From Eledone cirrhosa (Eukaryota): a DNA stretch of 64,000 bases. The DNA lies in contig OZ024747.1 of assembly GCA_964016885.1 (NCBI GenBank), positions 47,306,001 through 47,370,000 of the forward strand, read 5' to 3'. Below, one piece after another: positions 45,456-57,659 of this stretch. The translations under genes were made by a program, and so were the position numbers. Under the pieces are notes generated by a model, which had not been told where the DNA came from, did no database searches, and saw nothing but the letters and a program-made list of their open reading frames with translations. The first letter of the stretch is position 1; every line of letters begins with the position of its first letter.

Positions 45456-46635
45456 AAAGAATGAGAAATTAGAAAGATTGAAGGGACGGGCGGGGTGGAA
45501 TAGGAAAGCATATTTTTAGAGAAAATAACAGGTCCATTCGTGTGTGTGTGTGTGTGTGTGTGTGTGTGTGTGTGTGTGTGTGTGTGTGTGTGTGTGTGTG
45601 TGTGTGTGTGTGTGTGTGTGTGTGTGTGTGTGTGTGTGTGTGTGTGTGCGTGCGTGAGACCTTAGAGATGTTCCTAGTATTTTTACAAAGTTCTTCGTAT
45701 TTCATTTCACGCTTACGTATTGATATATTTTTGTTTTTGAATTTTTTTTCACGCGAGTTTGTCACAAAACTATATCATTGTCGTAAGTTACTGTCAAATT
45801 ATTCGTTGTTTGTATTCTATAATTGAATGTGTGCAGAATTGGGGCAATAGAATTGTGTGTGTGTTTCTGTCTGTGTTTTTGTGTATCTCTCTCTCTCTCT
45901 CTCTCTCAATATGTGTGTGTGTGAGTGTGTGTGTGTGTGTGTGCGCGTGTGTGTGTGTGTGTGTGTGTGTGTGTGTGTGTGTGTGTGTGTGTGTGTGTGT
46001 GTGTGTGTGTGTGTGTGTGTGTGTGTGTGTGTGTGTGTGTGTGTGTGTGTGTGTCTGTGGGTGTGCAATCATGTTTGAATTTGAATCAATCTATCTAAGG
46101 TTAATACGTTTGTGGATTTGTATAGAGTTGTATCCATATAGAATGTGTAAGTATGGATACATGTATATATATATGAGCTTATATGTATGTATACATGATT
46201 GCGTAAAGTAATAATTAAATATATATTTGCATATTTATATATAAATATATACATATATATATGTGTGTATGGGTGGGGTGGGGTGGGCTCTTTCTATATA
46301 TATATATATATATATATATATATATATATATATATGTATATATATACACAGATATGTTTGAATTATATACCTAGGTAAGGGAGCACTGATTTGATAACGA
46401 CCAGAGTCAGAAACGCTTGGAATATGCACTTTGTTGTTATTATTGCCGTTCTTAATCGAAGATAGGTATCTAGGTGAAAATACATAAACACATAGCTATA
46501 GATTGACAGGCAAACAAATATATATACATATGAGATCTAGATAGATAGACAGATAGAGATAGACAGATAGACATAGATAGATAGATAGATAGATAGATAG
46601 ATAGATAGATAGATAGATAGATAGATAGATAGATA

Positions 46636-49600
46636 TATTTCTTTTATTTGCCACTAGGGCATCAAAAGTGGGACAAGTACAAAGGGGGGAGTTTACACAA
46701 AAAGGCGTCCTCAATAAGGAGAAGGCAATAACAAAATATAAAAATAAAATAAGATATAACAAAAAATAAAATTTTTAACAAAATCCTCAATAGAGAGGAG
46801 GCGCCTTGGGGGGTTGCACACACCCCCGAAAAAAGTGTGCAACCCTTCTCCTCAGGAGCACAGAGAAGGGGTGCTCCCTTGGTCTTTCATCTTCCTCACC
46901 TATAGTCTGATGTAGAGTGAAGGCCCATTCACACGGGCCATTCTCGCCACTTTCACCCATCTTTCATAGAAACGGCTGGGGTGCAGCACCTCTCTCTCCA
47001 TCCTGATCCTTCTTCCGAAATGATATCGGAAGAAACGGACCAGTTGTTGGCCAGAGAGAAAGGTGCCCGACCTCAGTCCTTTCAGACGCGTCCACCATAC
47101 AACCTCTTTCGCCATGGCTATTACGCACAGAAACACCGCCTCTGCTTCATCTTTGAAGGGGGGAGGCGGCTTGATCATTACAATAGACTCGGTGGTCAAC
47201 CGGATCGGTCCCACCCTTGACAGCAGTTGTTCGACATAGCCCCACAGATCGGCTACGCCCGAGCAGTGTACTAATGCGTGTGCAACGGTTTCCTCGTCGC
47301 ACACGCATCTGGGACAGATCTTTTTGGCGGGGTCCCTACCCGGGCGCCCGTGTCTGTAGAGCCTTTCTCGAACGGGTAAAGCCCCTCGGTAGCACTGCCA
47401 GGCTAGGGACTTCTGGAAGTTGTCCATAGGTCCCGGGCTGAATGTCCTACCGAACAGGCTGGCCAGTTCGTCCTCCTCCATGTCTAGGGCTTCTCCGAGG
47501 GCGTCGTCGCACCTGCTGCGTACCAGCCCTCTATAGAATGTTGCGGTGGAGTCTCCACTGATAACCAGATCCGCCTGCCAGAGGGCGGTGAGCGCCTGGG
47601 CACACTCAGTGTGCCAGGCGCCCAGTTTTCTCGGTCTTTGCTTGACCCAGGATTGCAGCTCGGTGAGTGAGACGAGTCTGGGAAAGGTTCGTCTCACAAA
47701 CGAGGCCCACACCGGTTGTCCGGTGAGGAATACGTAGAGGTGCCGTAGCCTTAATGCGTGTTTACGCATCATTAGCCACGGCATCCCCAGCCCTCCTTTC
47801 GAAGGGTGTTGACAGCAGATGGATCTCCTCACCATAGGAGCCCGCCTCTTCCAAAGGAATTGGAAGAGCGCGCGCTCCATCTTGGTGAGGGTTTCCCTTG
47901 GGCAGGGCACTACGGTCAGGCGGTAGTAGATGACGGACGCTATGTAGGTGTTCGCCACCTCCGCCCGACCTTTCAGGGATAGTTTGCAACTGGCCCACTT
48001 CTGGGTCAGTGCAAACACCCTGTTCGTAACCTCCGCCCAGTTTTTCTCCACCTGGAGGTCCGGTCCGAACCAGACCCCGAGCAACTTCACCGGGCCCTCC
48101 GTCCAGCGTCCGACGACGCTATCGGAGGGCATCGGTCTGCCCCTCCACGTGCCGAGTTGCAAACCGATCGACTTGTCCCGGTTCAGCTTAGCCCCTGTGA
48201 ACTTTTCGTACTCCTCCAGTAAGGTGCCGACCGCCTCGATTTCGGAGGCCGTCGACACCATTACTGTCACGTCATCGGCGTAGGCCGACACCGCTTTCCG
48301 CAATCCCGGTTCCAAAGGGATGCCCTGCAACAACTCCAACTTCCGCAGTAGTGGCTCGAGAGTCAACACATACAGAAGGGAGGAGAGAGGGCACCCTTGT
48401 CGGATGGACCGCGCGATTTTGAACGGCTCCGAGAGGTAGCCGTTCACCTTGACCCTAGAGCAGATGCGGCTGCTGTGCATAGCAGTGATCCAGCCCCTGA
48501 AAACGGGTCCGAAGCCTGCCGCCGCTAGCACCGCATCCAGGTAACCATGGTCGACCCTATCGAACGCCTTAGATTGATCCAAGTTGATCAGAGCCCCACC
48601 AAAGCCGGGTTCGTTCCCAACCCTCTCTATGATGTATCGCATGAGGTGGAGGTTGTCATGGATGGACCTGGACGGGATAGCGCATGTCTGCGCATCTCCC
48701 ACCAGGTTGCCCACGACAAGCGCCAACCTCTTTGCTAGCACCTTGGCCAAAATCTGTAACTCTGTATTTAGCAGTGTTATGGGCCTGAAGTTACTTATTT
48801 CGTCCCCCTTGTTCTCGTCCTTCCTCACTAGCGTGACTACGCCCTTGGTCACAGTACAGGGAATTCTCCCGTTCTGTTGCCAGTTGCAGTAGACCGCCTC
48901 GAGGAGATCGGGGAACAAGTCCGGCATAGCTAGATATAATTCGTAAGGAAGACCATCGAGACCCGGGGATTTGAGTTTGCCGCATTGGCTCAGCACGTCC
49001 TCTATCTCAGCGGCCGAAATCGGCTCCTCGCAGGACTTCGCCTCCCTGTCCGAGAGGCGCGGCAGGCCGTCGAGGTATGGACCGAAGTCCACGTTCCCAA
49101 CCGGCTCCCCGCCCCTCCCGAACAGTCGGGCAAAGTGCCTTTGAAAGGCCTCACACATCTGCTTAGGCTCAAGAATCGCCCGTCCATCCAGGTCTCGCAA
49201 AGACCGGATGGTGGATTTAGTTCCACTGTTGGCCTCTGTCACGCGGGCCCAGCTAACAGCTTTGGTCCCCTCGTTCCCTAGAGCACGTATTTTACTTCGG
49301 ACAACGCAGCCTTCGTGCTTCGCGTCGAAAAACTGGCTCAAAGCCGTTCTCGACGCTAGCACTCTGGCCACGTCGCCGCTTCTAATTGCCTCTTCTACTC
49401 TATCTATTAGCTCCCTTTCCTTCCTATTCCTATCCGCAGCTAGAACCTTACTAAATTCTATCGAGACTACTCTAATCTCTCTCTTTAGAGATACCCACCA
49501 CCTGCTGTTGACGATCGCTCCAGTCAACCGTTCCTTAACTAACGTACTAATCCGATTCCTGTAGGCTCTACTTGCCGGCAAGGACAAGTTGAGCTTCCAG

Positions 49601-56966: not shown

Positions 56967-57212
56967 TGTTTCTTTTATTTGCCACTAGGGCATCAAAAGT
57001 GGGACAAGTACAAAGGGGCGAGTTTACACAAAAAGGCGTCCTCAATAAGGAGGAGGCAATAACAAAATATAAAAATAAAATAAGATATAACAAAAAATAA
57101 AATTTATAACAAAATCCTCAATAGAGAGGAGGCGCCTTGGGGGGTCGCACACACCCCCGAAAAAAGTGTGCAACCCTTCTCCTCAGGAGCACAGAGAAGG
57201 GGTGCTCCCTTG
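56967..57212 (-). mobile_element. Tx1 copy A4, 3' UTR only (~246 bp)
   Basis: Matches 50971-51216 and is followed by (GATA)n at 57213-57320. Confidence 0.92.
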
Positions 57213-57659
57213 AGATAGATAGATAGATAGATAGATAGATAGATAGATAGATAGATAGATAGATAGATAGATAGATAGATAGATAGATAGATAGATAGAT
57301 AGATAGATAGATAGATAGATGCTTGGGGAGAGGGTGAATGGATGGATGGATGTTGTATTTATTGTCCAAACATAGATATATATAGATATGTATCTCAGAA
57401 TTCCACTGAGTTCGATACCTCTGCACGATATCATGAGCAATTATGTTCCACAAAGATTTTGGGGTGACTCCAACGTTGTGAGCGAAATTGACTCAACTTG
57501 AAACCGTCTGATAGACTGATACACTTGTGGATAGAGATGTGTGGAATTACCTGGTTGGTAGGTTTAACATATCCGCCGATTTAAGACCATTACCTGGCCC
57601 TTGGGAGTACTTAGCGGATTGCATATCAATAAATATATTTCAGCTGTATCATTATTATA

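Follow-up and report, generated by a model that had tools for sequence, protein, structure and literature searches.

The window analyzed here is a 64,000-nucleotide stretch of the Eledone cirrhosa genome (GenBank assembly GCA_964016885.1, contig OZ024747.1, positions 47,306,001 to 47,370,000 of the forward strand). At window positions 46535-57320 it carries an array of long interspersed nuclear elements (LINEs): four copies of one LINE (A1-A4) and one copy of a sister family (B), arranged head-to-tail with (GATA)n between them. All of the copies lie on the minus strand, in keeping with a preliminary description, made from the sequence alone, that counted at least five insertions (A1, B, A2, A3 and A4) in the same orientation. 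Six pure AGAT runs of 60, 72, 104, 28, 12 and 108 bp are found in the array. As shown below, the family prefers to insert at a short word that is most densely supplied by GATA repeats, and it likely lands there by means of its own endonuclease. The features of the array are as follows (coordinates are window positions; start points of the A copies are numbered on L046, a genomic copy of 5,714 bp; ORF, open reading frame; UTR, untranslated region; aa, amino acids; APE, apurinic endonuclease-like domain; RT, reverse transcriptase).

46535-46635, no strand: left outer (GATA)n with a pure stretch at 46575-46634, becoming degenerate outward; 3' flank of A1
46636-50482, minus: copy A1, 5'-truncated (L046 position 1871), with a C-terminal remnant of ORF1, ORF2 and the 3' UTR
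46900-50337, minus: ORF2 of A1, open, 1,145 aa
50483-50555, no strand: (GATA)n spacer, 72 bp pure
50556-50565, minus: A-family 3'-end piece of 10 bp, identical to the A 3' end and then TATC
50571-50856, minus: copy B, a sister-family 3' end (end of ORF2 and 3' UTR) whose junction is likewise at TAT
50857-50865, minus: 9 extra bases at the 5' junction of B, foreign to the B family sequence
50866-50970, no strand: (GATA)n spacer, 104 bp pure
50971-55958, minus: copy A2, 5' truncation of about 713 bp
50971-51234, minus: 3' UTR of A2, with AATAAA 7 nt before the end, no poly(A), and predicted hairpins that covary across sister families
51235-54672, minus: ORF2 of A2, with APE endonuclease at aa 10-227, RT at aa 512-755 (YADD at 686) and a C-terminal zinc finger at aa 976-1032
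54697-55958, minus: ORF1 of A2 without its N-terminus, with a CX2CX4HX4C zinc knuckle; 592 aa in full-length L046
55959-55987, no strand: (GATA)n spacer, 28 bp pure
55988-56953, minus: copy A3, 0.97 kb, about 98% identical to the other copies
56954-56966, no strand: (GATA)3 spacer, 13 bp, about one target duplication in length
56967-57212, minus: copy A4, 0.25 kb, 3' UTR only
57213-57320, no strand: right outer (GATA)27, flanking A4 on its 5' side, with single-copy assembly sequence beyond

The A copies have a common 3' end and begin at L046 positions 1871 (A1), 714 (A2), 4751 (A3) and 5471 (A4), as expected from the earlier observation of one 3' end with differing 5' truncations. There are no full-length copies in the window, and a window copy as the full-length source was rejected, since every copy is 5'-truncated relative to L046. 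The roughly 713 bp missing from A2 correspond to the 5' UTR and the start of ORF1, and its ORF1 has an in-frame loss of 21 bp and a gain of 6 bp. In DNA alignments to the 3' end of A2, A1, A3 and A4 are 99.4, 97.9 and 99.2% identical, respectively, and the terminal dinucleotide of A1 is unlike that of A2-A4. Both ORF2s had been described as intact and about 99% identical; each encodes 1,145 aa counted from Met and they differ at 9 residues (99.2% identity). The statement that essentially only AGAT repeats separate the copies holds for the six pure runs but overlooks an additional 10-bp A-type end and nine foreign bases beside B. The 10-bp end at 50556-50565 is possibly an ultra-truncated sixth insertion, and its pattern behind B is present only at this locus among the fetched loci. 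This piece and the nine bases at 50857-50865 flank B on either side, and both are possibly ultra-short insertions.

Family 3' ends were counted in the 3.0-Gb genome by exact sequence patterns. There are 3,374 occurrences of an exact 31-mer taken from the 3' end and 3,601 of its 20-mer core. The 3' end of the element is constant and inherited, and consists of AATAAAAGAAA and two further bases. These two terminal bases (CA, TA or CT) track subfamily, with a concordance between nearest relatives of 0.80 as compared to 0.46 in shuffled data (maximum 0.64 in 2,000 shuffles, n = 91), indicating that they belong to the element. They are followed by TAT[C/A]T at 3,443 of the 3,601 A ends (96%); (TATC)3T follows 1,609 ends (45%) and (TA)6T follows 167 (5%). 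The genome contains 49,270 starts of TATC runs of this kind and, counted strand-wise, 6,181,607 starts of such TA runs, so that 3.3% of TATC but 0.0027% of TA run starts adjoin an A end, a difference of about 1,200-fold by our arithmetic.

A closer view is provided by a sample of 99 copies, drawn from the first 100 listed sites of one chromosome (C1) that were chosen by the exact 31-mer. Their 3' flanks consist of at least three TATC units in 39 copies, a shorter TATCTAT in 37, TATCT in 8, a long TA run in 7, a short TATAT in 7 and neither in 1. None of the 99 copies shows the GATA-reading strand at either junction. Poly(A) was found at 0 of 103 3' junctions, and a poly(A) tail was accordingly rejected. 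The target word, TATCTAT or TATATAT, is not confined to GATA repeats: (TA)n, hexamer repeats, minisatellites and unique DNA contain it too. Four of the copies (L070, L071, L048 and L056, all on C1) are inserted in minisatellites with words like TATCT or TATAT in their unit, L070 and L071 in one minisatellite region. The recognized unit is this short word, and (GATA)n is its densest source. Strict (GATA)n specificity was rejected, as only 45% of 3' ends adjoin at least three TATC units; the family had been called GATA-specific, and while its preference for GATA is strong, that term goes too far.

The 5' junctions tell whether the repeat was there before the element. Of the 99 copies, 58 have at least two TATC units in the 30 nt next to the 5' junction, compared with 0.7% of distal background 30-mers; by class, this is the case for 43 of 81 truncated copies and 15 of 18 copies that retain the 5' end. 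The two flanks agree locus by locus: TATC is found upstream of 31 of the 39 TATC-ended copies and TA upstream of 4 of the 7 TA-ended ones. Duplications of at least 12 bp that start at TAT are seen in 57 of 99 copies (shuffled pairs: mean 20, maximum 28). In 16 of 99 copies the duplication contains non-repeat, unique sequence, whereas 300 shuffles gave 0.5 on average and at most 4; these 16 duplications span 12-20 bp, a length that may include microhomology at the 5' side. Among 58 duplications anchored only on the bases after TAT, all 24 that are non-periodic have TAT at the left edge of the target. Insertions in unique DNA, minisatellites, hexamers and (TA)n have no added TATC tail. As such insertions lack a tail and their duplicated flanks match, GATA is a pre-existing target and not a tail made by the element itself. 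The preliminary description had named the latter as the outcome to expect if most copies had non-GATA 5' flanks, and the flank table gives 58 of 99 copies with TATC on that side.

Head-to-tail stacking is real at this locus, but it is common elsewhere and not special to it. A family neighbor in the same orientation lies within 150 nt of 36 of the 99 copies (upstream in 21, downstream in 22), a neighbor in the opposite orientation of none, and several sister families take part. A1 is 99.69% identical to L046, which lies on another chromosome (C1), and 99.45% identical to its neighbor A2. The best matches of A3 are likewise on the other chromosome and not among its array neighbors, and the right flank of the array is single-copy in the assembly. 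These comparisons favor serial independent insertion, in agreement with the independent retrotransposition proposed earlier. A search with the right flank found no second or empty allele. In one contig of sequencing run X1 there is a hint of another joint between a truncation, AGAT and a 3' end, with a short side of 22 letters, and loose contig ends with GATA runs beside element ends give similar hints in runs X4 and X5. Near-identical element words are also present in sequencing runs of several coded organisms (shares 0.78, 0.71, 0.54 and 0.41 for A-D); close relatedness, diet and transfer are alike possible causes.

The proteins are those of an L1-group element. Pfam identifies Exo_endo_phos, RVT_1 and, below the cut-off, zf-RVT in ORF2. 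The APE motif residues N10, E39, Y112, D141, N143, D202, D226 and H227 are invariant in comparison with Xenopus Tx1 and three other relatives. An alignment-based model of the endonuclease (pLDDT 94) is closest to L1 endonuclease structures (TM score 0.82-0.85), and the best PDB matches of ORF2 are L1 ORF2p and the L1 endonuclease (L1-EN). ORF1 has the CX2CX4HX4C motif with a Pfam zf-CCHC match below the cut-off (E = 0.051), and no Pfam match to RRM or Transposase_22 was found in it; in the cited portion of a survey of ORF1 types, Tx1 elements have a Type I ORF1 with RRM and/or zf-CCHC (PMC5203782). The features of the L1 group, joining L1 and Tx1 as in the cited parts of PMC5203782 and PMC3747384, are all present: an N-terminal APE, an RT and a C-terminal zinc finger (zf-RVT below the cut-off). 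Also present are the hallmarks of target-primed reverse transcription (TPRT), namely a fixed 3' end, variable 5' truncation and target-site duplication.

The nearest named relative is a protein of Argonauta hians, 68% identical in the RT region. In blastp searches with this region, Xenopus Tx1 scores 204 bits, Phallusia Pol 164 and plant L1 about 80-120. We built a quick RT tree of 61 rows and a careful one of 30 rows (31 rows left out), neither of which contains rows for vertebrate L1 or for a named invertebrate Tx1. In both, the family clusters with the Argonauta protein and with unnamed relatives and lies outside a vertebrate clade that holds Xenopus Tx1 with 100/100 support; the base of the tree is poorly supported, and a joint clade with the vertebrate Tx1 clade (plus 7 unplaced unnamed rows) is not rejected (approximately unbiased test, p-AU 0.243). 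The sister clade in the RT tree is a large group of unnamed ENA proteins (P0002-P0046, P0171-P0205) of about 40% identity. On these sequence comparisons the LINE is placed in an invertebrate lineage of L1/Tx1 type, not inside vertebrate Tx1. It works like the target-preferring Tx1 elements and is a possible member of their clade. The earlier assignment to the Tx1 clade may thus hold: this is an APE and RT element of L1/Tx1 type, but its RT does not nest among the vertebrate Tx1 elements.

Four helices predicted in the 3' UTR persist in 10 sister-family sequences picked by hand (window copies A2 and B, L032, L041, L044, L064, L103, L130, L139 and L146), with 96% of cells paired and 17 double changes as compared to 5.4 in shuffled alignments, this alignment having also served to derive the structure. 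Folded by itself, the 3' UTR does not score clearly better than its shuffles (z = -1.66), and Rfam has no match within window positions 45000-59000. The covariation is suggestive of hairpins that may serve as a recognition signal for ORF2p.

The family is young, as previously described: identity to one of two reference copies is 98% or more for 51 of the 99 sampled copies, 95-98% for 22 and less than 95% for 26. The median copy length is 2.4 kb. A 28-mer from the 5' end of one subfamily occurs 371 times in the genome. By length criteria both ORFs are open in 1 of 15 near-full-length copies, and ORF2 is intact in 8 of the 99; L046 has an ORF1 of 592 aa and an ORF2 of 1,145 aa. The pN/pS ratio of ORF2 between subfamilies is 0.17-0.30, as expected for selection on source elements. 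The B-type 3' pattern has 6,503 exact genome matches; TAT[C/A]T forms the junction at 28 of 30 B ends that were sampled, and where the frame is open the C-terminus of B-type ORF2 shares 83-89% identity with A. By inspection, there are at least 5 or 6 distinct 3'-UTR types among the loci.

We propose that the family inserts by endonuclease-led TPRT at the TATC/GATA word and that target duplication regenerates the landing site, a reading to which we assign a probability of about 0.7. Its grounds are seen directly: the fixed end, the truncations, the 12-20-bp duplications starting at TAT, the strand bias and the TATC preference. That the element lands at GATA-like words because its own enzyme cuts there is likely, judging from the sequence. 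ORF2p would bind its own RNA through the 3'-UTR hairpins, and the first nick would fall on the GATA strand, at 5'-AGATA/G-3' or 5'-ATAG/ATA-3', which fit the junctions alike. The freed 3' end would probably pair with the last UAU(CU) of the RNA and prime cDNA synthesis, and a second nick 12-20 bp away would duplicate the target. Each insertion would thereby leave TATC on both sides and restore its own landing site, so that further copies, of this family or its sisters, would line up head-to-tail, the arrangement seen in the window. The 13-bp spacer between A3 and A4 is about one such duplication long.

Several observations weigh against this reading. No TAT-rich word is present at the 5' junction of 22 of the 99 copies, some of which look rearranged on inspection. 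The bare motif stands alone there in 13 of 99 copies, which is the background level, and 5' (TA)n is found in 6 (plus 3 mixed), no higher than the 8-11% background; (TA)n as an enriched target was rejected on that count. At the 3' side, 55% of ends do not adjoin three or more TATC units. The 1,200-fold preference is approximate, as insertions themselves created or split some of the runs in the TATC count and some 3' runs may have lengthened since the insertion, and the sample was limited to one chromosome and to copies with the exact 31-mer. Finally, for L1-EN, nicking in vitro is looser than integration in vivo and factors other than the endonuclease contribute, according to the cited part of PMC1950540.

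Targeting might instead be achieved mainly by RNA-DNA pairing, which we consider unlikely. A loose endonuclease would nick AT-rich, flexible DNA, and only those 3' ends that pair with a read-through UAUCU(AUC) would be extended, so that the RNA tail would give both the strand bias and the GATA preference. In line with this, the junction always coincides with TAT and there is no poly(A), and with AATAAA only 7 nt before the end, transcripts from sources in TATC would likely run into the repeat; integration of human L1 is also shaped by factors besides nicking (PMC1950540, in the part cited). Yet the endonucleases of Tx1L, TRAS1 and R1Bm are themselves sequence-selective, as stated in the cited part of PMC1919474, and TATAT without TATC directly follows the end in 14 of 99 copies. 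The copies in unique targets have no extra TATC units between element and duplication, and a possible pairing of 3-5 nt would have to explain the roughly 1,200-fold excess of TATC over TA runs, both of which contain TAT. The fixed orientation was earlier taken to imply strand-specific nicking; the fixed strand is confirmed, but orientation alone is no proof, as pairing of an RNA with its primer could give the same result.

Some LINEs carry short-repeat 3' tails, and GATA could be such a tail made by the element itself, with arrays arising only when new copies land in the tails of older ones. A family 3' end lies within 150 nt upstream in 21 of 99 copies, so that part of the 5' TATC is the 3' flank of an older copy, and A-type and B-type ends together adjoin several thousand of the genome's TATC runs. 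This explanation is nevertheless very improbable, and the duplications of unique sequence largely rule it out: copies in (TA)n, hexamers, minisatellites and unique DNA lack a TATC tail, and their 3' flank is local sequence that is duplicated on the 5' side. Moreover, 58 copies have 5' TATC while only 21 have an upstream family end, and landing in tails would be a target preference anyway. Least credible of all is a local tandem or segmental duplication or an assembly artifact at this locus: although no independent contig bridges the window junctions (55950-56125 was skipped as repeat), there are four truncation points, the terminal dinucleotide of A1 is unlike that of A2-A4, B belongs to another family, single-copy DNA forms the right flank, and local duplication was rejected as the source because A1 and A3 have nearer copies on another chromosome than in the array and arrays recur at 36 of 99 sampled loci.

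In the cited parts of PMC4494074, Tx1 families target (TC)n, (TTC)n, (TTCC)n, (TTTC)n, U2 and transposons, tandem insertion is described for the target-preferring SINEU, and target preference is defined by more than 20% of flanks being of one type; here, TATC repeats adjoin 45% of the 3,601 3' ends and, at the 5' side, 58 of 99 copies. The microsatellite targets of elements without long terminal repeats that are listed in the cited part of PMC3812793 are ACAY, AC, TC, TTC and TAA. Like Kibi in (TC)n, Koshi in (TTC)n and crocodilian Tx1 in (TTCC)n or (TTTC)n, the Eledone family is an APE-type L1-group LINE in microsatellites (PMC4494074, PMC3812793, both as far as cited). It differs from Kibi and Koshi in its invertebrate host and in a TATC/TATA target that is not a pyrimidine-only repeat (98 of 99 3' junctions read TAT[C/A]T). 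In our trees, whose rows include no identified Kibi or Koshi sequence, its RT also falls outside the vertebrate Tx1 clade. Xenopus Tx1L (YTX2_XENLA, P0302) has the same ORF2 layout (30% identity over 833 columns, E = 3e-88; 36% in the RT) and shares the APE motif residues, although its ORF2 is longer (1,308 as compared to 1,145 aa). Tx1L uses one site in the Tx1D transposon, by the cited parts of PMC4494074 and PMC1950540, whereas the word of the Eledone family is found at tens of thousands of places. Human LINE-1 provides the best structural and sequence matches in PDB and resembles the family in the length of its target duplications and its frequent 5' truncation; unlike mammalian-type L1, the family has no poly(A) tail, no TTTT/AA target, and in ORF1 a zinc knuckle instead of Transposase_22.

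Waldo, Mino, Dong, SART1 and Togen are elements of R1, R4 and NeSL-related clades. They resemble the Eledone family in inserting repeatedly into short tandem repeats, but belong to other clades and use other repeat units: (ACAY)n for Waldo, (AC)n for Mino and (TAA)n for Dong (PMC3812793), (TTAGG)n for SART1 (PMC7265360) and (TG)n for Togen (PMC4640811), in each case as given in the cited part. SART1 further requires a poly(A) tail (PMC7265360, same part), and none is seen in the Eledone family. Among cephalopods, L1-Tx1 LINEs are abundant and partly recently active in Octopus vulgaris, with 80 consensus sequences and 13 recently active families in the cited part of PMC13282606. No target preference is reported in the cited parts of two such annotations (PMC13282606, PMC8967140). 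No LINE targeting GATA or TATC was found in the open literature searched; subscription papers and Repbase or Dfam may hold such a target, and we lean slightly towards regarding it as so far unrecorded. The behavior is of a known kind, the target word apparently new and the origin possibly separate.

TATC/GATA, with TATA as a minor site, is apparently an added word on the short list of APE-type LINE targets. As the lineage is not nested among vertebrate Tx1, the L1 group may have acquired microsatellite targeting on more than one occasion. A broader scenario is speculative and, in our view, rather doubtful as a whole: a cephalopod radiation of at least 5-6 sister families (more than 10,000 copies) that took to microsatellites independently of vertebrate Kibi and Koshi, with an endonuclease reading TATCTAT and no poly(A), and that builds and lengthens a sizeable share of the GATA microsatellites while seeding its own landing pads. 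In that case the radiation would provide a new enzyme, found in nature, for RNA-templated insertion into GATA repeats. Because its young copies number in the thousands, its targets are graded, with TATC well ahead of TA, and it has ORF2s that are intact, the family is a tractable system for separating the endonuclease from RNA-primer pairing in LINE targeting. Several thousand of the genome's roughly 49,000 GATA runs adjoin these LINEs, which matters for the design of microsatellite markers and for repeat annotation.

The window contains other elements outside the array. A 521-codon open frame at 9742-11307 (plus strand) has a weak RVT_1 match (E = 2.8e-5) and presumably represents a Penelope-type RT fragment. 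Two short frames on the minus strand resemble the GIY-YIG end of a Penelope-like element, one at 43049-44290 with no GIY-YIG match in the search and one at 37037-37513 with a weak match (E = 0.004). At 23409-24070 (plus strand) lies a decayed relative of the array ORF2, with 35% aa identity interrupted by stops and 66% DNA identity, and beside it on the opposite strand, at 24101-24781, an unrelated LINE fragment with a zf-RVT match.

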